From NCBI GenBank assembly GCA_964460535.1, contig CAYWQI010000001.1:26856-90855 (forward strand): a stretch of DNA of 64,000 nt, in the 5' to 3' direction. The notes beneath the pieces were generated by a model. That model did not search any database. It worked only from the letters and a program-made list of their open reading frames with translations, and had not been told where the DNA came from. Within the stretch, counting starts at the first letter, position 1; the number at the start of each line of letters is the position of its first letter. Origin of the DNA: Candidatus Woesearchaeota archaeon (GTDB taxonomy: Archaea > Nanobdellota > Nanobdellia > Pacearchaeales > GW2011-AR1). Shown here piece after piece: positions 4,992-63,497 of this stretch. Position numbers and translations under genes: made by a program.

Positions 4992-5410
4992 TTTATTCCT
5001 CCTACATAATGCGCTTGTGTTCAGAATTCTTTGAATTTAAATGAACTCAGCGATGTAGTTTTTGGTAAATTTTCAAGATAAATAGGGTTTTTAAATCATT
5101 CGGTTTTCAATCTAGCCACACAAGATATAAAAAATTCAAAATTCATTCTCTAATAAGATATCAATAGAAATAACTTTCTCAGATTGCACATAACAAATTA
5201 GAGATATATCTTTTAAAAGCAAAAAATATCAAGGATACTTCTAATAATGCCTATGACTCTATTAATTAAAATTCTTATTATTTATCAAATCCCTAAGAAA
5301 TGAAATTATTAACAAAAAAGCAAGGATGTTACAATGTAAATTGTTTTGACAAATCTTTTCATTTTTTGAAAATAACAAAACTTTAAATACAAAAGCTGAT
5401 TTATTATCTT

Positions 5411-9509: not shown

Positions 9510-11105
9510 TTATAATTTTGTTCTTCTTAAAATCTCTTGAGTCATTTCAGATTGAAAACTTTCATGTTCTTCTGGAGAATACCATGAAGCAACAGAATAA
9601 ATATTTTTACAAGGACTTCTATTATGACAGAATCCTGTATACTGGCATTTAACTCTCATAAAATCTTTTATATCTTGAGGAAGATTGCTAGATTGTAAAA
9701 GTTCATATTCTTGCCAAGTTGTTTTTTTCATTTCAGGTTCTACATCCTTGCACCTTCTCAATGATTCAAAACCCGTTGTTAAATTATATGTATCATAAGT
9801 TCTAAAAACACCTAATTTTAAACCTCTAGGGAAAACATAGATTGCATCACTTTCTGGGATCCCAATTTCTTTTAATTTTTCAAAAGTATTATTTGAATCC
9901 ACAATTCTATTTATCCAGATATTTAAATTTTCAAAATCTTCTTTAATTTCTTCTGGAAGTGAAAAGACTCTTTCTAACTCTCTTAAATTAGGTCCCAAGC
10001 CATCTTTTTTATTTTCAATAATTCTTTGAACAATAGGAGAAATTCTTTTTCTTGCTTGATAAATAGATTCTGCTTCTTGTGGCATTGTCCTATGTCTTTT
10101 GTATTCTCCCCAAACTCTCCAAGGACTTACAGAAAAAACACTTGCTCGAACATCTTGATTATGGTCTTGAACAATTTCATGGGCTTCTTGCAATAGTTGT
10201 TCATGTTGTTTTTTTGTTAGGTCTTTTGATTTAGAAACTTCTTTAAATTTTTTCAACCATTTATAAATTCTATTTTTTCTATCTAAAGAATCTCGAGAAT
10301 ATGTATCAACAATTATTAGATTTTCAGAATTTTCATCTCTTAATTCTTCTGCAGAAGTTTTTCTATAATGAAAAATACTTGGATTTGGACAAGTTGCTCT
10401 TGGGGAAGCCTTTCTTGCCTCATACGTTATTGTCATTCCATTCTCATAAACCATCTCTTCAAGTTGTGATAAGATTTCCTTTCCTTCTTGAGGAATTGCA
10501 TTAGGATTAAATTTAAAATCTCTTGAAAATGAAACAAGAGTCTCTAGAGGAATTTTAATAAAGCCTCCTCCAGTTAAACCATATTGAACAATCTTTGAAG
10601 CTTGTTGTTTATGAACTCCTCTTTCTTTAAGTTTTTCATAAGCTCTAATGTTTTCTTTACTATTTTTCATATAAATTTGGACTGCTTCATTTCCTGCAGA
10701 TTTAATTGACTTTGGAACAAGAATCTGATCTTCTTTAATTGGAACTCTTCTTCCTGAAGGCATCAAAGCACTTTCAAATCTAGCCCCAGTAAACATAGAA
10801 TCAATAAATTTTGAAGTTGAGTCTTCTGCAGAAATTGTTAAATCAATACCTGTTGACAGAGAAGCATGCCCTGCACCCGCAGAATTAACAAGACCTTTCA
10901 TGAGTTTTCTATATTCCTCTTCGTCACCTTCACCATAGTCTCCTAGTTGAATTTTTCTAAGAACGTCTGAAAAATGTCTAACATCTTTAAAAGTAATTCC
11001 TGCAGCAGCACAGATAACTTCATCAGGATTGACAATTCTTCCTTCTTGCAATTTTATCTTTGGACTATAGTCTCTTAAATGAATTTTAGGATTAACAATT
11101 TGCAT
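9510..11105 (-). CDS. thyX: ThyX-like flavin-dependent thymidylate synthase, apparent tandem duplication
   Basis: The second half carries KRHRTMPQEAES, fitting the ThyX RHR-x7-S motif, preceded by FSVSPWRVWGEY (compare FHVKAPIFVARQWF). The first half shows a degenerate copy: GHASLSTGIDLTISAEDSTSKFIDSMF...SGRR. Confidence 0.4.
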   Translation of the reverse strand: MQIVNPKIHLRDYSPKIKLQEGRIVNPDEVICAAAGITFKDVRHFSDVLRKIQLGDYGEGDEEEYRKLMKGLVNSAGAGHASLSTGIDLTISAEDSTSKFIDSMFTGARFESALMPSGRRVPIKEDQILVPKSIKSAGNEAVQIYMKNSKENIRAYEKLKERGVHKQQASKIVQYGLTGGGFIKIPLETLVSFSRDFKFNPNAIPQEGKEILSQLEEMVYENGMTITYEARKASPRATCPNPSIFHYRKTSAEELRDENSENLIIVDTYSRDSLDRKNRIYKWLKKFKEVSKSKDLTKKQHEQLLQEAHEIVQDHNQDVRASVFSVSPWRVWGEYKRHRTMPQEAESIYQARKRISPIVQRIIENKKDGLGPNLRELERVFSLPEEIKEDFENLNIWINRIVDSNNTFEKLKEIGIPESDAIYVFPRGLKLGVFRTYDTYNLTTGFESLRRCKDVEPEMKKTTWQEYELLQSSNLPQDIKDFMRVKCQYTGFCHNRSPCKNIYSVASWYSPEEHESFQSEMTQEILRRTKL

Positions 11106-12888: not shown

Positions 12889-13272
12889 TTACACAACTTC
12901 TAATCTTTTACCTTTTAGAATAATTGTTTTTCCTTTTAATTTTTTTATTATTTCCTTGTCAAGAGTTCCAATATAAACTTCTTCATCTTCTTTAGCATAA
13001 TTAACCAAACCTGTATCAACTTTTTTAATACCTAAAATAATTTCTTCAAAATCAGAACATTCAATAATTTTCAATGCAGTATCTGCAAGATCTCTAAATT
13101 TCATTCTTTTTTTCTTACCTTGTGCTATTCCTTTTAATTCAATTAAAACTTCCTGTGGAATTAAAATCTTAAATCCAAGATATTCAAGTTCTTTAAAAAA
13201 ATCAATTTTTTTTCCAACTGCAGAAATTATAAAACTTGTATCTAAAACAGCTTTTTTTACCATAAAATACAA
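12889..13272 (-). CDS. PIN-domain protein
   Basis: N-terminal VLDTSFIISA is a PIN signature. About 125 aa. Adjacent to the rpoE cluster. Confidence 0.5.
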   Translation of the reverse strand: MYFMVKKAVLDTSFIISAVGKKIDFFKELEYLGFKILIPQEVLIELKGIAQGKKKRMKFRDLADTALKIIECSDFEEIILGIKKVDTGLVNYAKEDEEVYIGTLDKEIIKKLKGKTIILKGKRLEVV

Positions 13273-13306
13273 GAATAAAAAGACTATAAAAACTTAAGGT
13301 TTCAAT

Positions 13307-13539
13307 GTATCTTGTAACACTTGGAGTTTTACTCAATAATTTCCTGTTTCACAGAAATAATAAATAATAAGAAATTTTAATTAATATCTTCTGAAGTTCT
13401 TTTGGATAATTGTGCCTTTAAATCCCTTATTAGAGGATATTTCTATACCTTGCTATATTTAAGCTCTGAAAGTTTTTATAATTAATTTTTTTCAGAGAAG
13501 ATATTTAGTTTTATTTTTGTAGTTAGTGTTACCAGATAT
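13307..13539 (+). mobile_element. MITE-like dispersed repeat, copy 1 (about 233 bp, 14-bp terminal inverted repeats)
   Basis: Left end gtatcttgtaacac and right end gtgttaccagatat are reverse complements. The interior is shared with four other copies in this window, for example ataattgtgcctttaaatc and tatatttaagctctgaaa. Confidence 0.65.
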
Positions 13540-13709
13540 GTTCCAATCTCTGCTTTTAACTTTATCGAAAATTTCTGTTCAAAACAAATTTGATATAATG
13601 ACAGATATCTATAAATTGATTAATTATAAATTAAAAATTTTCTACTAATATCTCTTTAGTTACTGCATTTCTTCCAAAACTTTATTAACCCCCAACCCTT
13701 TAGATACAT

Positions 13710-14270
13710 ATGCAAGAGGTGGACAATATTCTGAGAATTTTAAAAGAAACAAAATTAGCATTGCAAGAAGAAGATTCACATAAATTAAGAGATTTAAGTA
13801 ATCAAACAAATAATACAGCTTCTAGAACACAAGATCCAGACAATATTGCAATTGCAGTGATTATATATTCTATGAGTAAGATAATAGAAAGAGACCAATA
13901 TAGAAAATTAAAAGGATGGAAAAAATTTTATAAGCAATTCTTAAAAAAATTAGATTTAATTATCCTTGATATTAATAAGAAAAATTCTAGAGAACTTAAA
14001 AAAAATATACAAGAATTAAGAGAGTCAATAGATAATCTTTCTGGAAGATTAAAAGAATTTATTCAAGATGTTTTTAGAAAAGCTTCAATAAACAAAGCAT
14101 CAAAAATTTATGAACATGGTATATCAATGGAAAAAACTTCAAAGCTTCTGGGAATAAGTTTATGGGAACTTGCGAATTATTCAGGAGCAAAAGCAGATAC
14201 ACTTACAGAAGAATTAAAGACAATTAAAACAAAAGACAGAATTAAATTTGCAGAAGGAGTTTTTTCTTAA
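13710..14270 (+). CDS. hypothetical protein
   Basis: ORF only. Its stop overlaps the start of the next gene (TAAATG). Confidence 0.3.
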   Translation: MQEVDNILRILKETKLALQEEDSHKLRDLSNQTNNTASRTQDPDNIAIAVIIYSMSKIIERDQYRKLKGWKKFYKQFLKKLDLIILDINKKNSRELKKNIQELRESIDNLSGRLKEFIQDVFRKASINKASKIYEHGISMEKTSKLLGISLWELANYSGAKADTLTEELKTIKTKDRIKFAEGVFS

Positions 14271-17783: not shown

Positions 17784-18725
17784 ATGTATCTTGAAAAGAA
17801 AAAAGTAAAAGGAAAGATAAAATACTATTTGGCACATTCTTTTAGAGAAGGGGGAAAAGTTCATAAAATTAGAAAAAAATTAGGTACAGATTTATCCAAA
17901 GAAATTTTAGAAGAAAGAATAAAAAAAGCAGAAGAATTGATTTTAGAAGAAATAGAAAAATACAAATTTATTAAGGATCCTCTTGATAAAGATTTATCCA
18001 AAGAAGAAATTGAATTTGTAAAAAGATTACAAAAAGAGAATAAATTTGAGATCTATCATCTATCTGAAAAAGAATGGAAATTATTTTCAAAGATATTCAC
18101 TTACAATACAAATGCAATTGAAGGTAGCAAGTTAACAAAAAAAGAAGTTGAAGAAGTTTTAGAAGAAAACAAATGGCCAGATAAATCAAAAGAAGATATT
18201 GCCGAGACTTATGGAGTCAATGAGGCCATTAAATTTGTAAGAGATACTAAAGAACATTTATCTATTGAATTATTAAAAAGCATACATACAATAGTTTTCA
18301 AAAATTCAAAATCCTTTGCAGGAAAATTTAGAAAAAAAGGAGAAGAAGTTGCAGTTATTAATTCTGATGGTTTTATTGTTCATGAAGGAGCGCCACAAAC
18401 AAGAGTCTTAGGATTATTAGAAAATTTAGTTAAATGGTATAATAAAAACAAGACCAAATATCCTGGATTAATTTTAGCATCAGTAGTCCATAACCAATTT
18501 GAAAACATTCACCCTTTTGCAGACGGAAATGGAAGAGTTGGAAGAATTATTATGAATAATATACTAATGAAAAATAATCTTCCCCCAATAAATATAGACT
18601 TAGATAATCGAAGTGAATATTATTCAATTTTAAAAGAATATGAAAAAAACAAAAATCTAAGGCCCACAATCGAGTTTTTGATAAAAGAATACAAAAAGAC
18701 TAAAAAACAAATAAAGAAGTTGTAG
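17784..18725 (+). CDS. Fic/Doc family protein (putative AMPylase)
   Basis: Canonical Fic motif HPFADGNGRVGR. 313 aa. Confidence 0.8.
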   Translation: MYLEKKKVKGKIKYYLAHSFREGGKVHKIRKKLGTDLSKEILEERIKKAEELILEEIEKYKFIKDPLDKDLSKEEIEFVKRLQKENKFEIYHLSEKEWKLFSKIFTYNTNAIEGSKLTKKEVEEVLEENKWPDKSKEDIAETYGVNEAIKFVRDTKEHLSIELLKSIHTIVFKNSKSFAGKFRKKGEEVAVINSDGFIVHEGAPQTRVLGLLENLVKWYNKNKTKYPGLILASVVHNQFENIHPFADGNGRVGRIIMNNILMKNNLPPINIDLDNRSEYYSILKEYEKNKNLRPTIEFLIKEYKKTKKQIKKL

Positions 18726-20986: not shown

Positions 20987-21352
20987 TTAATGTCCTAAAA
21001 ACTTGTTATAAATCCATGCAAAAATAAATAATCCTGCAAAAACATCAACAAAACCATAAACAGCTCCAATCAAAGAACCAATCCAACTTACACTATAACC
21101 TGCAAAACCATACATTGCCTCTAACCAAGGAATAGCAAGATTTGTATATCCTGAAAAACTTCCTCCTAAAGCTAATAATGTAGTAATTAAAACACAAGCT
21201 CCAGAAAGAATACCTCCTGCTAATCCAAACTTAACTTTATCTAAACCAGGATATTTAGGATGAACAAAAGCTTCGACTTCATTATGAATTTCTCTTTGTC
21301 TTGCTTTATCCTCTTTTAGAATGTTCTTTTTTGTTTTATTGGATTTTGCCAT
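20987..21352 (-). CDS. small integral membrane protein
   Basis: Three predicted TM helices, Gly-rich. Confidence 0.35.
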   Translation of the reverse strand: MAKSNKTKKNILKEDKARQREIHNEVEAFVHPKYPGLDKVKFGLAGGILSGACVLITTLLALGGSFSGYTNLAIPWLEAMYGFAGYSVSWIGSLIGAVYGFVDVFAGLFIFAWIYNKFLGH

Positions 21353-21408
21353 TTTCCTCTTTTATATTAATAAGAGCAACTCTTCCTTTTTAAATTTTTC
21401 TAAGAATG

Positions 21409-21645
21409 GTCTTTGGTAACCAAAGTATGTTCTTCTTAATAATTTCTTATGGCTTTAATTTAAAAAATAATAAGAAATTTTAATTAATATTTTTTGAAGT
21501 TCTTTTGGATAATTGTGCCTTTAAATCAATTATTATTAGAAAATATTTCTATAACTCATATGTTTAAGATTTGAAATTTTTTACTATTAATCTTTTTTTA
21601 GTAAACATATTTGTTTTTATTTTTGTAGTTAGGACTACTATCTTC
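21409..21645 (+). mobile_element. MITE-like dispersed repeat, copy 2 (degenerate ends)
   Basis: Shares the internal blocks aataataagaaattttaattaatat, ttgaagttcttttggataattgtgcctttaaatc and tttatttttgtagtt with the other copies. Confidence 0.55.
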
Positions 21646-21729
21646 TAAGAGTGCAATTATCTGTAAAAACAAGATATCTTAATAATTAAAAATAATTAAA
21701 TTTAAAATATCTCATTTATTTAAGATTAT

Positions 21730-22524
21730 ATGATAAAAAAGAAAAAACTAGCTAAACTTACTTATATTTCACTAGTTTTATTTACAATCTTTATTTTATC
21801 TTCTATAAGTTATTTTTTTCTCAAAATACAGACTTCTGCAAGTTCTATTAAATATCTTTTAAATATTTTAAATGAAAAAAATTTTCAAGAAATATTAAAA
21901 CAAATAAGTTTTGAATTAGATTCTATTTCAGGATTAATAACAATACAAACAATATTTTCTTTAATAATTATTATTTCTCTTATTTCACTTGCGAGTTTTT
22001 TATTTAAAGCTTATTTAGTAAAACATAGAAATTCAATAATAGATCCTTTAACAGGAATTTACAACAGAGGAGCAATTAAATTTGGTCTTCAACAATCTAT
22101 TAAAGAATCAAGAAGATATAAACATCCTTTAAGTCTTGCAATTTTAGATATAGATCATTTCAAAACTTTTAATGATAAAAACGGACATACAAAAGGAGAC
22201 AACGCATTAATCAAATTTTCAAATATATTATCAAATGAAATAAGAGAATCAGATATTCTTGGAAGATACGGAGGAGAAGAATTTATAATAATCTTTCCTG
22301 AAACATCTTTAAAAAATTCTAAAAAAATCTGTGAAAGAATAAAAAACAAGATACAAAAAACATCTTTTGAAGGTGAAGAAAAACTTCCTGAAAAAAAATT
22401 AACAACAAGTATTGGTTTAGCTTCTTTTTCTGATAAAAGAAAAAGCCTCTCTTCATTAATAAATGAAGCAGATAAAAATCTTTATTCTGCAAAAGCTCTT
22501 GGAAGAAACAAAATAATTGGATAA
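21730..22524 (+). CDS. GGDEF-domain diguanylate cyclase with N-terminal transmembrane region
   Basis: Two N-terminal TM helices. A complete GGDEF domain: DPLTGIYNRG, ILDIDHFKTFNDKNGHTKGDNAL, RYGGEEF (intact GGEEF active site) and ADKNLYSAKALGRNK. Confidence 0.8.
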   Translation: MIKKKKLAKLTYISLVLFTIFILSSISYFFLKIQTSASSIKYLLNILNEKNFQEILKQISFELDSISGLITIQTIFSLIIIISLISLASFLFKAYLVKHRNSIIDPLTGIYNRGAIKFGLQQSIKESRRYKHPLSLAILDIDHFKTFNDKNGHTKGDNALIKFSNILSNEIRESDILGRYGGEEFIIIFPETSLKNSKKICERIKNKIQKTSFEGEEKLPEKKLTTSIGLASFSDKRKSLSSLINEADKNLYSAKALGRNKIIG

Positions 22525-22525
22525 T

Positions 22526-23821
22526 TTAATTTAAGTTATCTTTTTTAATAACTTTTTTACCATTCATGTAAGGTTGAAGAACTTTTGGAATTTTTATACT
22601 TCCATCTTTTTGTTGATTATTTTCTATTAAAGCAACAAGAGCTCTTGAAGTTGCAATAGCTGTATTGTTTAGAGTGTGAGGAATAATTCTTTGACCCTTT
22701 ATTCTTGTTGAAATTCCGAGTTTTCTTGCTTGAGCATCTGTCAAGTTTGAACAACTTCCAACTTCAAAATAATCCTTTTTTCTAGGAGAATAACTTTCAA
22801 TATCAACTTGCTCTTTTTTTAAATCTCCTAAATCTCCTGAACATATTTTTAAAACCCTTATTGGAATTTCCATTTTCTTGAATATGTCAATTGTAATTTT
22901 TTTCATTTGTTTATAAAAATTATCAGAATCTTCAGGTTTGCAAATTACAACCATCTCTATTTTATTAAATTGGTGTGTTCTAAATATTCCTTTTTCATCT
23001 ATTCCATGACTACCAATCTCTTTTCTAAAACACATACTATATGAAGTTTGTTTTAGAGGCAACCTTTTTTCATCTATTTCTCTATCAACAAATCTTCCAA
23101 TTAAAGAATGTTCTGAAGTTCCAATCAACGCCATTTTTTGTTCATCTTCAACAAGATAAATCTGCTGTTGTTTATCATTCAAATCAGTAACTCTGTCAAT
23201 AATTTCTTCTTTTAACATATAAGGAGTTTCAACATATCTAAATCCGCTTTTAACCATATAATCTCTTGCAAAATTTAACATTGCCTGGTTTAATAATGCA
23301 ATATCCCCTTCAATATAATAAAAACCATTTCCTGAAACTCTTGCTGAAGAATCAAAATCTCCTAAACCAAGTTCTTCTATTAATTCTCCATGAGATTTTA
23401 TTTCAAAATCTTGTTTTTTTGGTTTACCAATATATTCTTCAGGAACATTCTCCTCATCATCTTTTCCAATAGGAACATTTTCAGAAATAAGATTAGGAAT
23501 TTTAATTAAAATATCTCTAAGTTCTTTTTCTAATTTCTTTTCCTTTTTTTCATTATTTTCAATTTTTTTAGGAATCTCTTTTGCTTTTTTAATAAATTCT
23601 TTTGCTTTTTTTTCATCCTTGTTCTTTTTAGCTTTATTAATTTCTTCAGAAATCTTATTTCTTTCAGACCTCAATTTATCCCCTTTCTGTTTTTGAATTC
23701 TCCATTTTTCATCAATTTCAATTGCCTTATCCACAAGAGGAAGTTTATTTTCTTGAAATTTTTTCTTTATATTCTCTTTATAAATTTCAGGTCTTTCTCT
23801 AAGGTCTTTTATATCTATCAT
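22526..23821 (-). CDS. serS: seryl-tRNA synthetase
   Basis: N-terminal coiled-coil arm and class II motifs (FRKEIGSHG..., GLGDFDSS...). Start taken at MIDIKDL. Confidence 0.8.
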   Translation of the reverse strand: MIDIKDLRERPEIYKENIKKKFQENKLPLVDKAIEIDEKWRIQKQKGDKLRSERNKISEEINKAKKNKDEKKAKEFIKKAKEIPKKIENNEKKEKKLEKELRDILIKIPNLISENVPIGKDDEENVPEEYIGKPKKQDFEIKSHGELIEELGLGDFDSSARVSGNGFYYIEGDIALLNQAMLNFARDYMVKSGFRYVETPYMLKEEIIDRVTDLNDKQQQIYLVEDEQKMALIGTSEHSLIGRFVDREIDEKRLPLKQTSYSMCFRKEIGSHGIDEKGIFRTHQFNKIEMVVICKPEDSDNFYKQMKKITIDIFKKMEIPIRVLKICSGDLGDLKKEQVDIESYSPRKKDYFEVGSCSNLTDAQARKLGISTRIKGQRIIPHTLNNTAIATSRALVALIENNQQKDGSIKIPKVLQPYMNGKKVIKKDNLN

Positions 23822-23860
23822 GTAAATCAAAAAACAAGACATTATTTAAATCTTATTATC

Positions 23861-24098
23861 ATATCTGGTAATCAAGGCATACACTTTTCACTAATTTTTT
23901 GTTTCACAAATTTAATAAGCAATAAGAAATTTTAATTAATATATCTTGAGTTTTTTGAATAATTGTGACTTGATATTTTTTTATTATGAGAGAATATCTC
24001 TACAAATTGTTATGTCCAATCTCTGAAAGTTTTTACAATTAATCTTGCTTTAAGAAATGTATTTGTTTTTATTTTTGTAGTTGAGATTACTAAGAGAT
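23861..24098 (+). mobile_element. MITE-like dispersed repeat, copy 3
   Basis: Left TIR atatctggtaatca, degenerate right end gagattactaagagat. Internal blocks shared with the other copies. Confidence 0.6.
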
Positions 24099-24140
24099 TA
24101 TCATCAACAAGTTTAAAAATCCTATAAACTTGATTAAATC

Positions 24141-24809: not shown

Positions 24810-25054
24810 GTTTTGAAGATTTTTTCAATCAATGTATCTAGTAATCCTAATTACAAAAATAAAACTCAACACATTACTTGAAAAAATATTAATAGTAAAA
24901 ACTTTAAGGACTTAAACATAACAATCTGCAGAAATATTTCTCAATAATAAAAAATTCAAATACCCATTTCTTCAAAAAATCTAAAGACATTAACTTATTA
25001 AATTTACTAAGCAGAAAATTATTAAGTAGAACTTTAAGTGTTACAAGATATTAA

Positions 25055-26761
25055 TCAATTCTTTTCCACTCGAGGATGTTCATGGCCTTTTTTCATTCTC
25101 TCAAGCAACATCTTGACATGTTTCTTTTTTTCATTTTCATATCCTTTTTTGTTTGATTTATCTTGAGAAATCATTTTTGCAACATATTCTCCTCCTAAGA
25201 AATGCGGAGTTAAAACATAACTAGCTCCTTTTCTATAAAGTTCCATTGCATCTTCAATCTGATGTGCAGTAACAATAATAATTGCATTTGGATTTACAAG
25301 CCTTATTTGTTCAATCAATAATAGATTTGTTTCTTGGTCAGGAATTGTTGAAACTGCAAGTTGCATTTTGTCAAGAGGTAATTCTTCAAGTAAATCTGTA
25401 TCATAACTATCTCCATATAAACAAGGAATTCTTAATTTTTTTAAATCTTCAATAACATCAGGATTAAAATCTACTACAAGATATTTCTTTTTTATTTTTT
25501 TCAAGGATCTCAAAATACTAAATCCAATTCTATTATATCCAAATAAAATAGCATCATAGTGTTTGCTTGTATTTCTTGATTTTTTAATGTTCTTTTTTTC
25601 AAATATAGATAAAAATCTAGAGATTCTATTATAAATTTGCTTTGAATAAGTAATCATATAAGTTGAACCTGCAATTGTTATTAAACCAACTACAGTTACA
25701 AGCGAGAGTACTGTTGAATCAACATGGCCTACAGAAACTCCAAGTGCAACAAGAATTATAGAGAATTCACTTATTTGTGCTACAGTTAATCCAGATAAAA
25801 ACCCTGTTCTTTTTGTGTATCCCATTGAACCCATTAAAACCATTACAATAAAAGGATTTCCAATAAGAATAAATAAAGAAAACATAACTATTGGAAAAAT
25901 ATTATCTATTACATTACCCATTTCCATTTGAGAACCAATAATTATAAAGAATAAAACAATAAAGAAATCTCTTAGAGGTTTCATTTTTGAACTTATTTCA
26001 TTTGAATAAGGAGTTGTAGATAAAATTATTCCTGCTAGTAATGCACCAATTTCTAGAGAAAAATTAAGAAAATCAAACCAGCTTGCAAGTGCTAAACACC
26101 ATCCAATTGAAAAAAGAAATAAAAATTCTTGTGACCTTGCTATTTTCTTTAAAAGAGAAGGCATAACACTAAGACCTAATAAAAAAAGAATAGTTATGCT
26201 CAAAAATCCATAAATAAGAATACTTGTAATAGAACCTGAATCACTATTTCCAGAAAATGAAGAAACAGCCATTAAAATAAAAACTGCAATCAAATCTTGA
26301 ACAATCAAAAAACCAACAGAAATTTTTCCATAAAGACTATTCATATCTCCTTTATCTGATATTAGTTTCATAATAATAATAGTACTACTAAATGTAAGAG
26401 CTATAGCAATGTATACAGAAGCAATAATAGAAAATCCTAATAAAAAGGAAATAATAAAAGATATTATTGAGGTAAAAAGAACTTGTCCAACACCAGTAAC
26501 TAGGGATATTTTTCCAACCTCTTTAATAACTTTAGGATTAAGATGCAAACCAACAGTAAAGAGAAGCAATGCAACACCTATCTTTGAGAAAGTTCCTAAT
26601 GCAGAACCCTCTGAAATTAAATTTAAAAAAATAGGCCCAACAAGAATTCCTGTGATAATATAACCTATTAACAAAGGCTGTTTAAATGCTTTCATAATTG
26701 CAGAAACACCAATAGCTACAATAAGTATAATTGATAATTGTATAAATGTATTTTCTATCAT
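25055..26761 (-). CDS. CPA2-family monovalent cation/H+ antiporter (Kef-type) with C-terminal TrkA-N/RCK domain
   Basis: About 12 TM helices followed by a Rossmann RCK region (LVVDFNPDVIEDL...). Confidence 0.7.
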   Translation of the reverse strand: MIENTFIQLSIILIVAIGVSAIMKAFKQPLLIGYIITGILVGPIFLNLISEGSALGTFSKIGVALLLFTVGLHLNPKVIKEVGKISLVTGVGQVLFTSIISFIISFLLGFSIIASVYIAIALTFSSTIIIMKLISDKGDMNSLYGKISVGFLIVQDLIAVFILMAVSSFSGNSDSGSITSILIYGFLSITILFLLGLSVMPSLLKKIARSQEFLFLFSIGWCLALASWFDFLNFSLEIGALLAGIILSTTPYSNEISSKMKPLRDFFIVLFFIIIGSQMEMGNVIDNIFPIVMFSLFILIGNPFIVMVLMGSMGYTKRTGFLSGLTVAQISEFSIILVALGVSVGHVDSTVLSLVTVVGLITIAGSTYMITYSKQIYNRISRFLSIFEKKNIKKSRNTSKHYDAILFGYNRIGFSILRSLKKIKKKYLVVDFNPDVIEDLKKLRIPCLYGDSYDTDLLEELPLDKMQLAVSTIPDQETNLLLIEQIRLVNPNAIIIVTAHQIEDAMELYRKGASYVLTPHFLGGEYVAKMISQDKSNKKGYENEKKKHVKMLLERMKKGHEHPRVEKN

Positions 26762-36177: not shown

Positions 36178-36405
36178 ATGAAAAAATTAAAAATTTTATG
36201 CCTTTTCCAAAAGGAAGAGTTTTTTGTAAAATGAAAAAATTAAAAATTTTATGCCTTTTCCAAATTAAAAACAACAGGAAAAATTTGTAAAATGAAAAAA
36301 TTAAAAATTTTATGCCTTTTCCAAAAGGAAGAGTTTTTTGTAAAATGAAAAAATTAAAAATTTTATGCCTTTTCCAAATTAAACACAACAGGAAAAATTT
36401 GTAAA
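36178..36405 (+). repeat. tandem repeat, 2 x 114 bp (subunits of 53 and 61 bp), copying the 5' end of the downstream gene
   Basis: ATGAAAAAATTAAAAATTTTATGCCTTTTCCAAA... begins at 36178, 36231, 36292 and 36345. The real acyP start ATGAAAAAATCAGTAAG is at 36406. Confidence 0.8.
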
Positions 36406-36681
36406 ATGAAAAAATCAGTAAGACTATACATTTCAGGAGCAGTTCAAGGAGTATTTTTTAGAGCATTTATAAGAGAAAATGCAGAGAAATTAGATGTTAA
36501 AGGCTTTACCAGAAACCTTGAAGATGGACGCGTAGAGGTTTTTTTAGAAGGAGATTCTTCAAAGGTAAATCAAATGATAGATATCTGTAAGCAAGGACCT
36601 AAACATTCAATTGTAAAAAAAGTAGATCTTAAACCAGAAAAATTTCAGTCTATTAAAGGATTTAAAATTTTACACATATAA
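36406..36681 (+). CDS. acyP: acylphosphatase
   Basis: VQGVFFRAF...GFTRNLEDGRVEV matches the acylphosphatase signatures. Confidence 0.8.
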   Translation: MKKSVRLYISGAVQGVFFRAFIRENAEKLDVKGFTRNLEDGRVEVFLEGDSSKVNQMIDICKQGPKHSIVKKVDLKPEKFQSIKGFKILHI

Positions 36682-37778: not shown

Positions 37779-37822
37779 TCTTTATTTATTATTCCAGAGT
37801 TTATAAGTATTAGTATTTTTAG

Positions 37823-38054
37823 TATCTGGCAATATTAAATACAAAAATAAAACTAAATATCTTCCATGAAAAAAATTAATTCTAAAAATTTTCAGAGCTT
37901 AAATATAGCAAGGTATAGAAATATCCTCTAATAAGGGATTTAAAGGCACAATTATACAAAAGAACTTCAGAAGATATTAATTAAAATTTCTTATTATTTA
38001 CTACTTCTGTGAAACAGGAAATTATTGAACAAAACTCCAAGTGTTACCAGATAC
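37823..38054 (-). mobile_element. MITE-like dispersed repeat, copy 4 (inverted orientation)
   Basis: 38041-38054 gtgttaccagatac is the reverse complement of the left TIR. 37823-37836 gtatctggcaatat is the reverse complement of the right TIR. The interior is the reverse complement of copy 1. Confidence 0.65.
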
Positions 38055-38109
38055 TATTTTTATAATCTCTTTCATAAAATTTTATAAACTCTCTTTTTCT
38101 CAATACAAT

Positions 38110-40084: not shown

Positions 40085-40888
40085 ATGACAGAATTTAAAA
40101 TACCTAAACCAAAACCAGATTTTGAAGGAACAGGCTCACCTGTAAACTTTGCAGATGTTAGGGATGTTTATGCTGAGGCTGTAGAAAAGTTAGTTTTATA
40201 TGATTATGCTAAGTTTGGTAAGGATTGGCAAAATAGAGCACTTGATATTTTAATTGGAGATGAGAGGGTTTATTCTCCATCTTCAGAAGGAAAGTGGAGA
40301 GGTTCAAATCCTCCTATCTGTACTTTGATGCAAGAAAAGATTAAAGGATTAGATTTAATTACATTACAACAATCAAGAAGAGCTTATGAAGCCAATGGAA
40401 ATAGACCTCCTGTTCCTAATGCTTATTTTGAACATGGTTGGGCAGTTATTCCTGGACAAAATTCAGATTATAAAAGAAATCCTGAAATTGCTTCAAGACT
40501 TGTGGAAGGTTTAAAGAGTAAAGGAATTGAAGTTGGGAAAGGGAGGGTTATTAATTTCTCCCAATTACATCTTCAACCAGTACAAGATATAAGAATATTT
40601 GATTTTGTTATAAATAATACTACAACAGAAGATAATGTTGCTAAGGTTGGGGATTATAATTGGGATTACGGTTTTCCTAATTCAGCAAGTGGCGCTTTCC
40701 GTGCGATTCTTGGCAGTAACTCGGGCTGGGGTGTCGGCAGAGGCAATCCTGAGATTTCGGGCGAGGATGGTCGGGTAGTGCGGTTTATAGCCGAAGGCGA
40801 CGCGCCAGAAAAATTAAGTTCTCTAGTTCAAGAAAAAGATCCTCTAAAAGAGAGAATCACAGAATTTAGAAAAAGAATTTCTTCTTAG
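40085..40888 (+). CDS. DGR target (variable) protein, with the variable repeat at its 3' end
   Basis: The codons of the 3' region 40696-40777, AFRAILGSNSGWGVGRGNPEISGEDGRV, are the mutated counterpart of the template repeat at 41054-41135. The region is locally GC-rich in an AT-rich gene. Confidence 0.7.
   Translation: MTEFKIPKPKPDFEGTGSPVNFADVRDVYAEAVEKLVLYDYAKFGKDWQNRALDILIGDERVYSPSSEGKWRGSNPPICTLMQEKIKGLDLITLQQSRRAYEANGNRPPVPNAYFEHGWAVIPGQNSDYKRNPEIASRLVEGLKSKGIEVGKGRVINFSQLHLQPVQDIRIFDFVINNTTTEDNVAKVGDYNWDYGFPNSASGAFRAILGSNSGWGVGRGNPEISGEDGRVVRFIAEGDAPEKLSSLVQEKDPLKERITEFRKRISS
40696..40777 (+). repeat. DGR variable repeat (VR)
   Basis: Matches the TR at 64 of 82 positions. Of the 18 mismatches, 17 are TR=A (16 are G in the VR, 1 is T). 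Confidence 0.75.
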
Positions 40889-41053
40889 AAAGTTTTATAA
40901 ATTTCTTTTTTGATTTAATATTCCTAATCAGAAATGGTTAGGCTACACGCCAAATTATTGAGAATACAGATTTTCCTTGCGAGGAACTTCAGTGAGCAAA
41001 ATAATTTTGTGAAATAATAATTTGGCTATTAAGTTCCGTGCGATTCTTAATAG

Positions 41054-41135
41054 TAACTCGAACTGGAATGTCAACAAAGACAATCCTGAGAATTCGAACG
41101 AGAATGGTCAAATAGCTTAGCCAGGGTTAGGATTT
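41054..41135 (+). repeat. DGR template repeat (TR)
   Basis: Intergenic, between the target gene and the reverse transcriptase. In the VR frame it reads F R A I L N S N S N W N V N K D N P E N S N E N, which is rich in AAC/AAT codons. Confidence 0.75.
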
Positions 41136-41141
41136 TTTAAA

Positions 41142-42127
41142 ATGCAAAATCTCTACTACAAAATTTATTCATGGAAAAATATGCTTTCAGCATGGAGAAA
41201 AGCAAGAAAAGGAAAAACAAAGAAAAATTATGTTATGGGGTTTGAAAAGAATCTTCGAGAAAATTTAAAACAATTAAGATTTGAATTAATGACTGAAACT
41301 TATTTTCCTCAGTTATCAAAAACATTTATTTTGCGAGATCCAAAAACTAGAGTTATAAGCAAATCTGATTTTAGAGATAGAATTGTGCATCATGCTTTGA
41401 TTAATATAATTCAGAATATTTTTGAGAGGTCTTTTATTTATGATTCTTGTGCAAATCAAAGAGGCAAAGGAAATTTATTTGCAATTTCAAGATTTGATAA
41501 ATTTAAGAGAAAAGTTACTTCAAATCTTAAACAAGAAGCCTTTTGTTTAAAAGCAGACATAAAACATTATTTTCAAGAAGTAAATCACGAGATTCTTTTT
41601 GAAATTTTACAAAGAAAAATCAAAGATGAAAAAGTTATTAATTTAATTGTAAAAATCTTGCAGAACAGTGCGGACAGAGAGAGAGAGAGACGCGACATTC
41701 TTTATCAAAAGGCATGCCTCTTGGAAATTTAACAAGTCAATTTTTTGCAAATGTTTATCTTAATGAATTAGATTATTTTGTGAAACATAAATTAAAATGT
41801 AATTGTTATATTAGAGATGTTGATGATTTCGTTATTTTGCATAAATCTAAAAAACAACTTGAAATTTGGAAAACCCAAATCTTTCAATTTCTTCAGGATA
41901 AATTAAAACTTGAATTGCATAAAGACAAATCTTCTATTAGAATCCTGTCTCGAGGAATTGATTTTGTTGGTTTTAGAAATTTTTACAAAAAACGTTTAAT
42001 TAGAAAAAGAAGTTATAGAAAAATGAGAGCTAGAATAAAAGAATTTAATAAAGGAAATCTCTCTACAGATAAATTTTTTGAATGTTTTCAAGGTTGGTTA
42101 GCTAATGCAAGATGGCAGGAGTTTTGA
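41142..42127 (+). CDS. DGR reverse transcriptase (two ORFs joined by a frameshift near 41669-41700)
   Basis: RT1 FRDRIVHHAL. RT2 LKADIKHYFQEVNHEIL. RT3 GMPLGNLTSQFFANVYL, containing the DGR-specific [ILV]GxxxSQ. RT5 CYIRDVDDFVIL. RT7 GIDFVGF. The frame switches within ...gcggacagagagagagagagacgcgac... Confidence 0.75.
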
Positions 42128-42179: not shown

Positions 42180-42404
42180 ATGGCAACAACAATTCAAATA
42201 AGTAAGGAGCTTTTACAAGAATTAGCATCTATGAAAATGCATACAAAAGAAAGTTATGAAGAAGTGATCTGGGATTTAGTTGAAGATAGAAAAGAACTTA
42301 GTGAAGAAACTAAAAGAAATTTGGCAGAAGCTGAAAAAGATATCAAAGAGGGAAGAGTACATTCTTGGGAAGATGTTAAAAAGGAGTTAGGATTAAATGT
42401 ATAG
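42180..42404 (+). CDS. putative antitoxin (partner of RelE/ParE)
   Basis: 74 aa, acidic, overlaps the toxin start by 8 nt. Confidence 0.4.
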   Translation: MATTIQISKELLQELASMKMHTKESYEEVIWDLVEDRKELSEETKRNLAEAEKDIKEGRVHSWEDVKKELGLNV

Positions 42405-42648
42405 CATAGTTCTTGCAGATAAATTCAAAAAGCAATTAAAAAAAATTCCAAAACAGGAACAAGAAAGAATCGGTAAGGTCATAGAAAGAATAAAAATACG
42501 TCCTTTTTCACATGCTGAAAGAATTGTGGGAAGCCCCCATTTTAGAGTTCGTTCAGGAGATTATAGAATAATTATTAACATAAAACAAAAAGTATTAATT
42601 ATCTACGTTTTAGAGGTCGGACACAGAAAAAACATTTATAAAAAATAA
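42397..42648 (+). CDS. RelE/ParE-family type II toxin
   Basis: 83 aa. ...SGDYRIIINIKQKVLIIYVLEVGHRKNIYKK is the RelE/YoeB C-terminal signature. Confidence 0.6.
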   Translation: MYSIVLADKFKKQLKKIPKQEQERIGKVIERIKIRPFSHAERIVGSPHFRVRSGDYRIIINIKQKVLIIYVLEVGHRKNIYKK

Positions 42649-42937: not shown

Positions 42938-43483
42938 ATGGTAAAAAAAGTAACCAAATGGACATTTTTAGAACCATTCTTAAGAACATCAGAAGAACTA
43001 CATCTTTTAGATATATCTCGTCAATTAAGAGAGAACCATGCAACAGTTAGAAATTATCTGAATGATTTTGAGAAAATAGGAATCCTAGAAAAAAGAAACA
43101 AGGGAAGGCTTACTCTTTATAGATTAATTAAAGAAAATCCTTTGATCATAGACTATTTATGTTTAGCTGAAAAAGATAAACTTATTAGAAAAACTAAAGA
43201 TAATAATATTCTAAAAGAGCTTGTTTCATTATTACATAAAGAGACAAATAAACCAACAATAATATTTGGATCTGCTGTTGAAGATTTAAAAAAAGCAAAC
43301 GATATAGATATCTTAACAACAGGAAATCTAGATGAAGAAGAATTAGAAAAAATAATAAGAAGAAAAATTCATCTTGTAAAAATTTCTTCTTTAAATAAAG
43401 TTACAGATTCTCTAAAAAATGAAATTTTAAAAAAACATTTAATAATAAACTCTTCTGAAGAGGTTTTAAAATGGTTGGTTTGA
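42938..43483 (+). CDS. winged-HTH plus minimal nucleotidyltransferase (MNT) domain protein
   Basis: TIIFGSAVEDLKKANDIDIL fits the GS...D.D nucleotidyltransferase motif. The N-terminal region is wHTH-like. Confidence 0.5.
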   Translation: MVKKVTKWTFLEPFLRTSEELHLLDISRQLRENHATVRNYLNDFEKIGILEKRNKGRLTLYRLIKENPLIIDYLCLAEKDKLIRKTKDNNILKELVSLLHKETNKPTIIFGSAVEDLKKANDIDILTTGNLDEEELEKIIRRKIHLVKISSLNKVTDSLKNEILKKHLIINSSEEVLKWLV

Positions 43484-46866: not shown

Positions 46867-48834
46867 TTAATTATTTCCCATATCCTTTAATTTTTTAAGA
46901 ACATCATCAATTTCAGAAGATTTTTTCTTTGGTTGAGGTTTTGGAGGACTCTGAGTAGGTCTATTTCTATTTGGATTAGGAATCATTCTTCCTTGCCCTT
47001 GTAATTGAACTCTTGAACTTGGACCAGGAGCATTTTTGTATCTATTATTTGGATTATTTCTATTGTTTGGGAATTGTTTTTTATTTTTCTTATTTTTAAT
47101 CTTGTTTTTTAATTGTTTAAATTTTGTTTTTGTTTTATACCAATAAGGTCTAAGTCTGTCTCTAAAGATAATTGCTAAAACAACAAGCACTATTAGTAAT
47201 AACAACAAGATTATCCAAAACCATAACCATCCTCCCCCATCTTCTTTTTCAACACAACAAGTTTCACTAATTGAATCACATTCATAATCAACTTCTTTTT
47301 CACCATCTGCACAACCAAAACTACAGATTCCTCCTTCTATTTCACATTCATTTTGTTCATCAACAACAATTTCTTCACAACTTCCTCCTCCAACACAACA
47401 AGTCTCACCAGAAAGAGTATCTGAAGCTTCTTCTATTCTTCCTTCAGTACATTTTTCTTCATCTCCACAAATAATTCCTCCTTGAGCTTCACAAGTTGGA
47501 GTTGTTTTTGGTTTATCACAACAAACATAACTTCCTGCACATGTTTGTCCAGAAATTTCTTCACCTCCAGCTTCCTGACAATCCATACTTGACAAACAAT
47601 AATTTCCTTGTTCTTCACAATCAATAACATCACTAGACGAACCTTGATTTTCCTGAGGCCATACAGAGATTAAAACAAATGAAGTATCTCTTATATTTTG
47701 ATTATTCCAACATCCTCCTTCTTCTTGAACATCAAGTAACCAAGATTTTGAATTTCCTTTTTCTGCAGGATTTTCATAAATAAAAGGATAAAGTGCAAGA
47801 GAAGTATCATAAAACTTGCTATTTCCAGAACCAGATTCCCAATATTGGTCTGATTTTTGTTCAAGCAAAAGAGTATTTCTAAAATCATCATATCCTGTTA
47901 AAAAATACAAAAATGCTTCTGGAAGATACTGGTTATTTGATTCTTCTAATGCAATTAAATAAGGATAAAATTTTTCAACTTCTTCTTTATTATCTGTTGA
48001 ACTTAATGCCATTGCAGACCATAAACTTCCTTCATAATCACAACCTGTTTGACTTGGAGATGAAAAACAATATGAATTTACTTCTTCAGTTGTTGTTCCT
48101 TCTGCAGATGAACTTTGTATTTTATCTGAAACATGAATTATTGAAGAACCTGATTTTTTAAATAAAAGATTTGTAGTAAAACTTTTATCACAACTAACCT
48201 TAATTTCCTTGTCATAACAATTATCTGAAACTCTTAACCAGTATCTATCTGAACTTAAACTTAAGCAAGTTCCAGCTGAAGAGCTTATTTTTTTATCTTC
48301 TCCAATCTTTACATTGTAATTTTCCTCATCATAAGAAATTTTACAACTTGTTTCTTCAGAACTTTCTATTTGTAAATACCAGAATATTTCATTAGGAGTT
48401 TGTTTATTATCTAATAACCAATTTTCATAAACCTCTGTATTTTCTGAATTTGCTCTTAAAGCTAAAATTGCTTGAGCAGTTGTTTTTATATCACATTCAC
48501 CTCCATCTGAATTTACTGACCAACATTCAGAATTTTGTCTATCAGATAATAAAGAATTCTTGCAGTTTCCATTTGCCCACAATGAAAAAATCTTTTGTTC
48601 AACACTTAAACTTTCACATCCTTTTTCATTAACTTCTTTATCAAGACAAGAATATGCTTTATCAATCAAATCTTCTTCATTAACAGAACCATCAAGAGAA
48701 ATATCACTTTCTGAACTTCCAGAACTTATTGTTTCATTAGAAGTATTTTCACTTTCATTATCTGCAACCATAAATGGAATTGCAAATATAAAAAATAAAA
48801 TCAAGATACATGAAATAATTCTCCTCTTTTGCAT
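46867..48834 (-). CDS. large Cys-rich surface protein with C-terminal TM anchor and P/N-rich tail
   Basis: Signal peptide and more than 40 Cys. Possible terpenoid-cyclase/prenyltransferase-like alpha-alpha repeat (AQAILALRANS). TM helix near the C-terminus. Confidence 0.45.
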   Translation of the reverse strand: MQKRRIISCILILFFIFAIPFMVADNESENTSNETISSGSSESDISLDGSVNEEDLIDKAYSCLDKEVNEKGCESLSVEQKIFSLWANGNCKNSLLSDRQNSECWSVNSDGGECDIKTTAQAILALRANSENTEVYENWLLDNKQTPNEIFWYLQIESSEETSCKISYDEENYNVKIGEDKKISSSAGTCLSLSSDRYWLRVSDNCYDKEIKVSCDKSFTTNLLFKKSGSSIIHVSDKIQSSSAEGTTTEEVNSYCFSSPSQTGCDYEGSLWSAMALSSTDNKEEVEKFYPYLIALEESNNQYLPEAFLYFLTGYDDFRNTLLLEQKSDQYWESGSGNSKFYDTSLALYPFIYENPAEKGNSKSWLLDVQEEGGCWNNQNIRDTSFVLISVWPQENQGSSSDVIDCEEQGNYCLSSMDCQEAGGEEISGQTCAGSYVCCDKPKTTPTCEAQGGIICGDEEKCTEGRIEEASDTLSGETCCVGGGSCEEIVVDEQNECEIEGGICSFGCADGEKEVDYECDSISETCCVEKEDGGGWLWFWIILLLLLIVLVVLAIIFRDRLRPYWYKTKTKFKQLKNKIKNKKNKKQFPNNRNNPNNRYKNAPGPSSRVQLQGQGRMIPNPNRNRPTQSPPKPQPKKKSSEIDDVLKKLKDMGNN

Positions 48835-48876
48835 GTATTATATTAATATTAGATGTTTTTAAATTATTTGGTTTTT

Positions 48877-49099
48877 AGTAATTAGTAACACTTGAGGTTC
48901 TACTTGATAATTTCCTGCTTAGCAGATTTAATAAAATAATTAATATCATTAGATTTTCTTGGATATATGTGCCTTTAAATCCATTATTATTAAAAAATGT
49001 CTCTATACCTTACTATATTTAAGCTCTGAAAATTTTTAGAATTAATTTTTTTCAGGGAAAGTATTTAGTTTTATTTTTGTATTTAATGTTACTAGATAC
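48877..49099 (+). mobile_element. MITE-like dispersed repeat, copy 5
   Basis: Left end tagtaattagtaacac, right end atgttactagatac. Internal blocks match copies 1 to 4. Confidence 0.6.
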
Positions 49100-49138
49100 G
49101 GTTTTTAAAATAAGAATTATTTAGAGTATTAATTTAAA

Positions 49139-49822
49139 TTATAATATCATAGGCCAGAATCTTTCTCTAAGTTCTAGAAGGGTTTTAGTTGCTTGTCCTT
49201 TTCCTTTGAAATTTTTCATAAGTAATTTTTTTATTTCATCTAACTTTAAATCTCTAGATACTAAAGAATAAAACATTCTATCTCCCAAACCATACCCTTG
49301 AGAATGTATTAAAAATTCAGATAAAATATCATCATCAATATCTCTTAAAGGCTCCAGAGCATCTTGAATGTTTATTTTTTTAAGAGATAATTCAAGATAA
49401 TCAGGATATTTATGATAAGGGTTTTTTCTTGAAGGGTCTAGAATTTTAGAACCAAGAAAACCAAACATCTCAATTAAAGAATTAACTGCAAACCAATCTT
49501 GTTTAGTTTTATTTGCAAGAGTAATCCTTGAATTTCTAAGATGAAAACAATGAGAAGCCTCTTCATTTAAAGCATAATTCTCATCTTTATTTAATATAAT
49601 AACATTTGGCCTATATAGATATATACTGCCTCCTTTTTTTTGACATGAAACAACTTCTTCCCTATATCTTTCAGGAAGAAACAAATCATTAAAATTTCCT
49701 AACTTTCCAAGCCATCTTACTTCAGGATACGAATCAACTTCTAATCCAAATTCTTCTTCTAAATCATTAAGGGCTTCATAAGTTTTCCTTTCTAATATTT
49801 CTTGTTTCTCTATAAATCTCAT
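49139..49822 (-). CDS. hypothetical protein (cotranscribed with priS)
   Basis: ORF only. Its start abuts the primase stop. Confidence 0.3.
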   Translation of the reverse strand: MRFIEKQEILERKTYEALNDLEEEFGLEVDSYPEVRWLGKLGNFNDLFLPERYREEVVSCQKKGGSIYLYRPNVIILNKDENYALNEEASHCFHLRNSRITLANKTKQDWFAVNSLIEMFGFLGSKILDPSRKNPYHKYPDYLELSLKKINIQDALEPLRDIDDDILSEFLIHSQGYGLGDRMFYSLVSRDLKLDEIKKLLMKNFKGKGQATKTLLELRERFWPMIL

Positions 49823-62687: not shown

Positions 62688-63497
62688 TTAATCGAGCAAA
62701 CGAGAAAGGTTTTTAATATTTTTGTTTGCAACATGAGTATAAATTTGAGTTGTTTGAAGATTTGCATGTCCTAAAAGTTGTTGAATATTCCTTAAATCAC
62801 ATCCTGCTTCAAGTAGATGAGTAGCAAAACTATGTCTTAGTGTGTGAGGAGTTACTCTTTTTTTAATACCTGCTCTTTGTGCTGCTTGTTTAACAATAGC
62901 TTGAATTGTTTGCTCAGAGTATTTTTTACCTCTGTTGGATTCAAAAATTTTACCTTCGCGACTAACCTTAAAATTATTTAATTCTTCAATCAAGGAATCA
63001 TGCAGAAAAACAATTCTTTGGTGTTCTCCCTTTGCAATTTTTAATTGAATAGTTTTTCTTTCAAAATCCAAATCCTCCCAGTTTAGATTTCTAACCTCTC
63101 CTAATCTCAATCCTCCGTAGTAAAGAAATCTTAAAATAAGGCGATGTTGTAAATTATCTGTTTTTTGAATCATTTTTAAGACCTCAAATTTGTTTAAAAC
63201 ATTTGGAAGTAAAATTTTCCTTTTTGCAAGAGGCATTTTTTCTCTAAAATTTGATTTTAAGACAAAATTATAATAAAACTGCAATGCAAAATAAACACTC
63301 CTTAGTGTGTTTCTACTCTTTTTAGAATATTTTAATAAAAATTCTTTTGGATTTTCCTTGCTTTTGAGATATAATGTAACATAGTAAAGATATTTCTTTT
63401 TTGTCTTAGAAGAATATTTTCTCAGGTTAAGTTCCTGGTTTAAGGTATTAATTTTTTCAGATATCTCTGCATCTTCCATAATAATTAGGGGAAACAA
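62688..63497 (-). CDS. xerA: tyrosine recombinase (XerA/XerCD family)
   Basis: C-terminal catalytic R...HTLRHSFATHLLEAG...LGHANLQTTQIYTHV. Confidence 0.75.
   Translation of the reverse strand: MFPLIIMEDAEISEKINTLNQELNLRKYSSKTKKKYLYYVTLYLKSKENPKEFLLKYSKKSRNTLRSVYFALQFYYNFVLKSNFREKMPLAKRKILLPNVLNKFEVLKMIQKTDNLQHRLILRFLYYGGLRLGEVRNLNWEDLDFERKTIQLKIAKGEHQRIVFLHDSLIEELNNFKVSREGKIFESNRGKKYSEQTIQAIVKQAAQRAGIKKRVTPHTLRHSFATHLLEAGCDLRNIQQLLGHANLQTTQIYTHVANKNIKNLSRLLD

Follow-up and report, generated by a model that had tools for sequence, protein, structure and literature searches.

The SM1-SM4 elements of Sulfolobus and the MITEs of haloarchaea are non-autonomous elements of ~80-350 bp with terminal inverted repeats (TIRs) and target-site duplications (TSDs), for which the transposases of resident IS elements probably act in trans, the partner IS being found in the same genomes. 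Short dispersed repeats of other kinds can be dense in compact or reduced genomes, e.g. the Rickettsia palindromic elements, the REP/BIME sequences and the IS200/IS605-derived PATEs: The Rickettsia elements are often inserted in-frame into genes and are without clear TSDs, REP sequences form imperfect ~35-bp palindromes, and the hairpins of PATEs are subterminal, with neither TIRs nor TSDs present. MITEs have been reported in 20% of archaeal genomes by a census that lists 18,091 of them with a median length of 104 bp, and the top archaeal densities are those of DPANN genomes, with Ca. Altiarchaeum reaching 146 per Mb and a Woesearchaeon 105 per Mb (PMC11602168). The IS6/IS26 family, which is widespread in archaea, generates 8-bp direct target repeats and has inverted repeats of 14-20 bp with the motif GG..cTGTt..caaa, the GG being at the tips; two MITEs of this family, of 227 and 336 bp, are listed in ISfinder (PMC7986276).

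The window (the whole 64-kb stretch of DNA analysed here) contains seven full-length copies of a repeat, each of 218-237 bp, which we regard as very likely to constitute one bona fide MITE family, i.e. a ~230-bp non-coding, non-autonomous derivative of a DNA transposon. It is comparable to prokaryotic and DPANN MITEs in being small, AT-rich, non-coding, multi-copy, nearly always intergenic, equipped with both TIRs and TSDs and restricted to one taxon. Its density of seven copies per 64 kb (~109 per Mb, assuming the window to be representative) is on par with the highest archaeal values, and its length of ~230 bp exceeds the 104 bp of the census median (PMC11602168). As the density of MITEs in DPANN archaea is already known, the finding is ordinary in kind; it represents a sequence family that is apparently new, whereas elements of this type are well known. 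In contrast to the Sulfolobus and haloarchaeal MITEs, the present family resides in a reduced DPANN genome, with no partner IS found within the window. Its clean TIRs, 8-bp TSDs and strictly intergenic location also distinguish it from the Rickettsia palindromic elements, REPs and PATEs, and a PATE- or REP-like identity was rejected as the element has both TIRs and TSDs.

The window has a G+C content of 26.7% and encodes archaeal aIF5B/IF-2 and archaeal topoisomerase I, PCNA, the primase small subunit, Hjc, Nre, a RadA-like protein, Spt4 and an Rpo7-like protein, along with ribosomal proteins of the archaeal/eukaryotic type. Its SerRS is 100% identical to MFW5846552.1, encoded on a 98.6-kb contig of a Nanoarchaeota archaeon MAG, the next relatives, some of them labelled Pacearchaeota, being at most 75% identical. 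Thus, gene content and SerRS matches together identify the host as an uncultured DPANN archaeon that is Nanoarchaeota/Pacearchaeota-like, whose genome is reduced and its lifestyle probably episymbiotic.

Self-comparison of the window recovered all five blocks listed in the initial annotation, whose coordinates had been off by at most 1 nt, and upheld the family while adding two copies that had been missed (c6 and c7). Four copies are on the forward strand: c1 (13307..13539, 233 bp), the copy named in the initial annotation, c2 (21409..21645, 237 bp), c3 (23861..24097, 237 bp) and c5 (48878..49099, 222 bp). The three on the reverse strand are c4 (37822..38054, 233 bp), c6 (24834..25051, 218 bp) and c7 (5108..5339, 232 bp). 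An nhmmer profile of the seven matched each of them, at E-values between 1e-40 and 8e-61, and had no other match in the window. Together they occupy 2.5% of the window, or ~18% of its non-coding DNA. The copies had been described as near-identical, which holds for c1 and c4 (94%), a young subfamily, whereas the remaining pairs are 59-83% identical. The most diverged copy is c7, which is 59-66% identical to the others (nhmmer E=3.9e-41) and appears to be the oldest, while c5 and c6 have in common an internal deletion of 12-16 nt. A short-read Logan contig from the same organism (L001, SRR11308339), 100% identical to the window, stops inside c2 and c3, as multi-copy repeats break assemblies; a second Logan contig (L007) passes uninterrupted through c7.

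Imperfect TIRs of 14-15 bp, with the consensus 5'-GTATCTGGTAACAC...GTGTTACCAGATAC-3', are present in all copies, in agreement with the claim that the copy ends are reverse complements of each other. In c1 the left TIR reads GTATCTTGTAACACT and the reverse complement of the right one ATATCTGGTAACACT. Complementarity over the first 15 terminal positions amounts to 13/15 in c1, 12/15 in c5 and 11/15 in both c4 and c6, the copies in which the TIRs are best kept (the left TIR of c4 being the best preserved of the family), and the TIRs are decayed in c2, c3 and c7. With up to three mismatches permitted, GTATCTGGTAACAC has 11 matches in the window against 1.95 expected, a number reached in none of 100 shuffles, and eight of these 11 are copy ends. 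The same motif scan of the window found no larger segment bracketed by a TIR pair.

An 8-bp direct repeat flanks all seven copies, a feature that had escaped the initial annotation, which had proposed a search for such duplications. The ends of the element were fixed at identical alignment columns throughout, and the 8-mers on its two sides were then compared: 49 of the 56 positions are identical, whereas random placements of equal spacing give 17.3±3.6 and at most 36 in 200,000 trials. When the two boundaries were shifted independently from -6 to +6 in a 13x13 grid, the maximum was at (0,0) alone, and whereas positions 0-7 in register agree in 5-7 of the seven copies, the adjoining positions do so in 1-4. 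The grid peak and the agreement in register thus place the duplication at exactly 8 bp. It is perfect in two copies: c4, where both flanks read TAAAAATA in element orientation (TATTTTTA on the forward strand, at 38055-38062 and 37814-37821), and c5, with GGTTTTTA at 48870-48877 and again at 49100-49107. In four others it matches at 7/8 positions: GTTTCAAT (13299-13306) and GTTCCAAT (13540-13547) for c1, TAAGAATG (21401-21408) and TAAGAGTG (21646-21653) for c2, TTATTATC (23853-23860) and TTATCATC (24098-24105) for c3, and, in element orientation, ATTGATTA and ATTGATTG for c6 (forward strand 25052-25059 and 24826-24833). Both c6 repeats contain TGA, and the one at 25052-25059 holds the stop codon of a Na+/H+ exchanger gene (25055-25057). 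The most decayed duplication, AAAACAAT and AAAACCGA in element orientation (5/8; forward strand 5340-5347 and 5100-5107), is that of the oldest copy, c7, as expected. The duplicated 8-mer differs from copy to copy.

The copies are found in several distinct genomic contexts, and the placement of four of them in divergent spacers and of c5 between two minus-strand genes had been correctly given. With c7 added, the divergent spacers hold five of the seven: c1 between a PIN-domain gene (-) and ORF 13710..14270 (+), c2 between ORF 20987..21352 (-) and a GGDEF-domain gene 21730..22524 (+), c3 between serS (-, start at 23821 as in MFW5846552.1) and the gene for a 222-aa membrane protein (+), c4 between a VTT-domain gene (-) and lysS (+), and c7 between the ribosomal protein L1 gene (-) and an ABC-transporter ATPase gene (+). 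In the tandem spacer occupied by c5, the copy is located between the stop codon of ORF 49139..49822 (-) and the promoter of the next gene, at the start of ORF 46867..48834 (-), while c6 occupies a convergent 3'-3' spacer between two stop codons. All seven are intergenic in a sequence that was only ~12% non-coding before insertion (P≈3e-7 for random insertion).

These contexts bear on the proposal that the copies are shared regulatory or promoter modules, or that intergenic DNA has been spread by gene conversion or segmental duplication, in either case without transposition. The presence of five of seven copies between divergent promoters would suit it, as would the TATA-like stretch AGAYTATAAAAA, present just outside the element in the left flank of both c1 and c4, but c6 lies between convergent 3' ends and c5 behind a stop codon. 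Moreover, the similarity ends sharply at the TIR tips, beyond which the flanks are unrelated except for TATA-like boxes, both orientations occur, and each copy has its own distinct 8-bp duplication. Conserved divergent-promoter motifs are ruled out as the common denominator by the unrelated contexts, the two orientations and the 3'-3' spacer, and the register test of the TSDs effectively refutes the proposal as a whole, leaving it a negligible probability. Self-comparison, TSDs, varied contexts and one empty site (see below) instead support the reading as a non-autonomous MITE-like family with TIRs that had been put forward at the outset.

The empty site is found at the serS locus of a relative, on a 104-kb ENA contig (L008) that encodes a SerRS 73% identical to that of the window. 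Its gene order is the same, namely Na+/H+ exchanger, membrane protein and serS, with an extra 103-aa ORF, not present in the window, between the first two; its membrane protein is 42% identical to the 222-aa ORF (E=1e-34). The spacer between the membrane protein gene and serS measures 65 bp in the relative versus 319 bp in the window, which is reduced to 74 bp when c3 and one TSD are subtracted, and both short spacers contain two back-to-back TATA-like boxes. This single locus in a distant relative supports an interpretation of c3 as a probable insertion into a pre-existing divergent promoter spacer. The predicted mobility of the family thus draws on the TSDs together with one empty site, in a relative at 73% SerRS identity. 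The serS neighbourhood is not shared by three further SerRS relatives or by P0011, which therefore yielded no second empty site, and nhmmer detected no family members in the ~89 kb of relatives' loci. As a separate observation, the 103-aa ORF of the relative (L008 6959-7270), which has no Pfam match, is located exactly where the window has c6; the two are unrelated by nhmmer.

The initial annotation had further suggested that the element may supply promoter sequence to its neighbours. At the sites that we inspected, i.e. those of the PIN gene (c1), serS and the 222-aa gene (c3), lysS (c4) and ORF 46867..48834 (c5), the unique flank outside the element contains a TATA-like box, which precedes the likely start codon by ~20-32 nt. 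The suggestion is therefore not supported, as promoters need not come from the element. A start of lysS inside a TIR, as had also been noted, applies to the mechanical GTG start at 38041 alone: Solved LysRS homologues align only from residue 40 of the ORF onward, and the likely start is the ATG at 38110 (residue 24), a plausible choice that is preceded by TTTTATAAA and located 56 nt outside c4.

None of the copies encodes a transposase, as had been stated: Stretches free of stop codons extend to at most 24-48 aa, depending on the copy, in frames that vary among copies, and the interior has a G+C content of 19-24%. On either strand (z=-2.6 and -3.4), the single-sequence folds of c1 are somewhat more stable than those of shuffled sequences, mainly via TIR pairing, which could point to genes for a structured non-coding RNA or to cis-regulatory leaders that resemble a transposon only through their pairing ends. 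However, the consensus fold of the seven copies by alifold is essentially nil at -1.19 kcal/mol, with a covariation term of +0.27 and the TIR stem not predicted. At the gathering threshold the Rfam 15 scan of the window returned tRNAs only, and the best Rfam match of c1 was DicF with 15.5 bits against a cut-off of 48 bits (E=0.61). An RNA reading would, in addition, leave both the 8-bp flanking duplications and the empty site unexplained; it was rejected after the single folds, alifold and Rfam, and we consider it very unlikely.

A role for the host is envisaged if the MITE has been domesticated, with former insertions kept as spacers or insulators between back-to-back archaeal promoters, as oligo-T terminators or to donate promoter elements. 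No copy is truncated, even at ~60% identity and including the oldest, c7, at 59-66%, a slightly surprising state for junk DNA in a compact, ~86% coding genome. Five of seven being between divergent genes is likewise compatible with retention, runs of T7 and T4AT5 on the top strand of the element are candidate oligo-T terminators under this reading, and the longest conserved block, the 13-nt TTTTATTTTTGTA near the right end, is kept in at least six of seven copies at every position (invariant in six). Yet a run of 13 conserved columns is reached in 855 of 20,000 column shuffles, and among the columns of the alignment those with an A/T consensus are conserved in at least six of seven copies in 67% of cases versus 19% for those with a G/C consensus. 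Conservation that tracks base composition in this manner is as expected if the copies are decaying neutrally under AT-biased mutation, and internal functional constraint was rejected as an explanation in favour of the AT bias. Further points against domestication are that the TATA-like boxes of the inspected neighbours are in unique flanks, that orientation relative to the neighbours is inconsistent, the genes that read into c5 and c6 meeting opposite faces of the element, and that the relative functions with a spacer of 65 bp at serS. We therefore view domestication as quite unlikely and favour a MITE family in neutral decay, in which any host function would probably be absent.

As to the source of the transposition activity, the ~57 ORFs of the window that were scanned contain no transposase domain in Pfam, and the sole recombinase among them is a XerA-like tyrosine recombinase (62688-63497). 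A scan of the GTDB species genomes, the JGI metagenomes and IMG/VR with a degenerate pattern, to which six of the seven copies conform, retrieved at chance level four loci of marine/Pelagibacter type; these were rejected as family members after blastn, which showed only a shared AT-rich stretch of 40-60 nt of the pattern. No match to c1 was found among PLSDB plasmids and INPHARED phages (blastn in distant mode), and a search of the full-text literature with the TIR sequence gave only irrelevant primer matches.

Among known families, IS6/IS26 resembles the present element in the 8-bp TSD, the ~14-bp inverted repeats and a MITE size of ~230 bp, and a partial resemblance is seen in the CTG at positions 5-7 of GTATCTGGTAACAC. 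In contrast to IS6, the tips are GT or AT rather than GG, and an internal CTGGT...AACA is only a partial match to the motif; no IS6 transposase was seen in the window. Given the absent GG tip, we do not file the element as IS6-derived. TSDs of 8 bp are also typical of IS256, ISL3, IS66/ISBst12, IS1595, ISH6 and the ISH1 group of IS5. As several IS families generate duplications of this size, their length does not settle the parent family. It is unlikely that the family is an orphan MITE of a genome with no matching transposase of its own, mobilised in trans by a transposase of a host archaeon or a virus, or that its uniformly full-length copies have been co-opted, e.g. as spacers or terminators between closely packed transcription units; in either case it would be more than junk DNA.

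On the reading as a MITE family, the following history is proposed. The parent would have been a DNA transposon of the cut-and-paste or copy-in type, and a predicted DDE-type transposase, encoded outside the window, would have recognised the 14-15-bp TIRs and joined the ends of the element to a target that had been cleaved with a stagger of 8 bp, the repair of which would give rise to the 8-bp direct duplication at each copy. Only intergenic insertions would have survived. Most of them occupy the short interval that separates core promoters arranged back to back, ~30-70 nt ahead of start codons, and the others directly follow stop codons. Amplification probably occurred in several waves, as suggested by the subgroups c1/c4, c5/c6 (with their shared internal deletion) and c2/c3 and by the old c7, and the family as a whole would now be decaying neutrally under AT-biased mutation.

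The family shows that an ultra-small, gene-dense DPANN genome has tolerated repeated invasion by a transposon, and the copies mark the spots where insertion was tolerated: mostly the gaps between back-to-back promoters of the leaderless type, or positions past stop codons. In practical terms, the family breaks short-read assemblies of the host organism and can mislead gene callers, e.g. with regard to the GTG "start" of lysS inside a TIR, while the combination of TIR and 8-bp TSD provides a handle for finding the partner transposase in Nanoarchaeota.

Several other features of the window were recorded in the course of this analysis. The GGDEF (diguanylate cyclase) domain gene that adjoins c2 and serS (21730-22524, +; Pfam E=1.3e-44) is absent from the equivalent position in the SerRS relatives examined; c-di-GMP signalling genes are unusual in archaea, and this one may be a bacterial acquisition. 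Genes of the toxin-antitoxin type and Fic genes are represented by PIN (12889-13272), Fic (17784-18725), ParE (42397-42648) and nucleotidyltransferase/HTH (42938-43483) genes, and three Fic-domain genes are also found near serS in the relative with the empty site. A 531-aa ORF (9510-11105, -) matches ThyX in its C-terminal half (Pfam Thy1, E=3.8e-14), while the ~290 aa by which it is extended at the N-terminus match no family.

The window also contains a diversity-generating retroelement (DGR; 40085-42127), a class of elements common in DPANN archaea. Its template repeat of ~80 nt (TR, 41034-41115) is located just upstream of the reverse transcriptase (RT), and its variable repeat (VR, 40697-40778) at the 3' end of ORF 40085..40888, which encodes 267 aa with no Pfam match; ~18 of the 19 differences between VR and TR affect adenines of the template, in place of which VR has G or T. 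Two overlapping ORFs, 41142..41732 and 41714..42127, share the RT (Pfam RVT_1) between them and cover profile positions 8-115 and 119-204 respectively; such a split points to a frameshift, a sequencing error or a pseudogene. Finally, a tandem duplication at 36178-36415 comprises 2.1 copies, 99% identical, of a 114-nt unit that is itself built of sub-repeats of ~53-61 nt, with ATGAAAAAATTAAAAATTTTATG contained in each unit. The array runs into the start of an acylphosphatase ORF (36406..36681), and it looks like a recent duplication of the 5' end of that gene together with its promoter.
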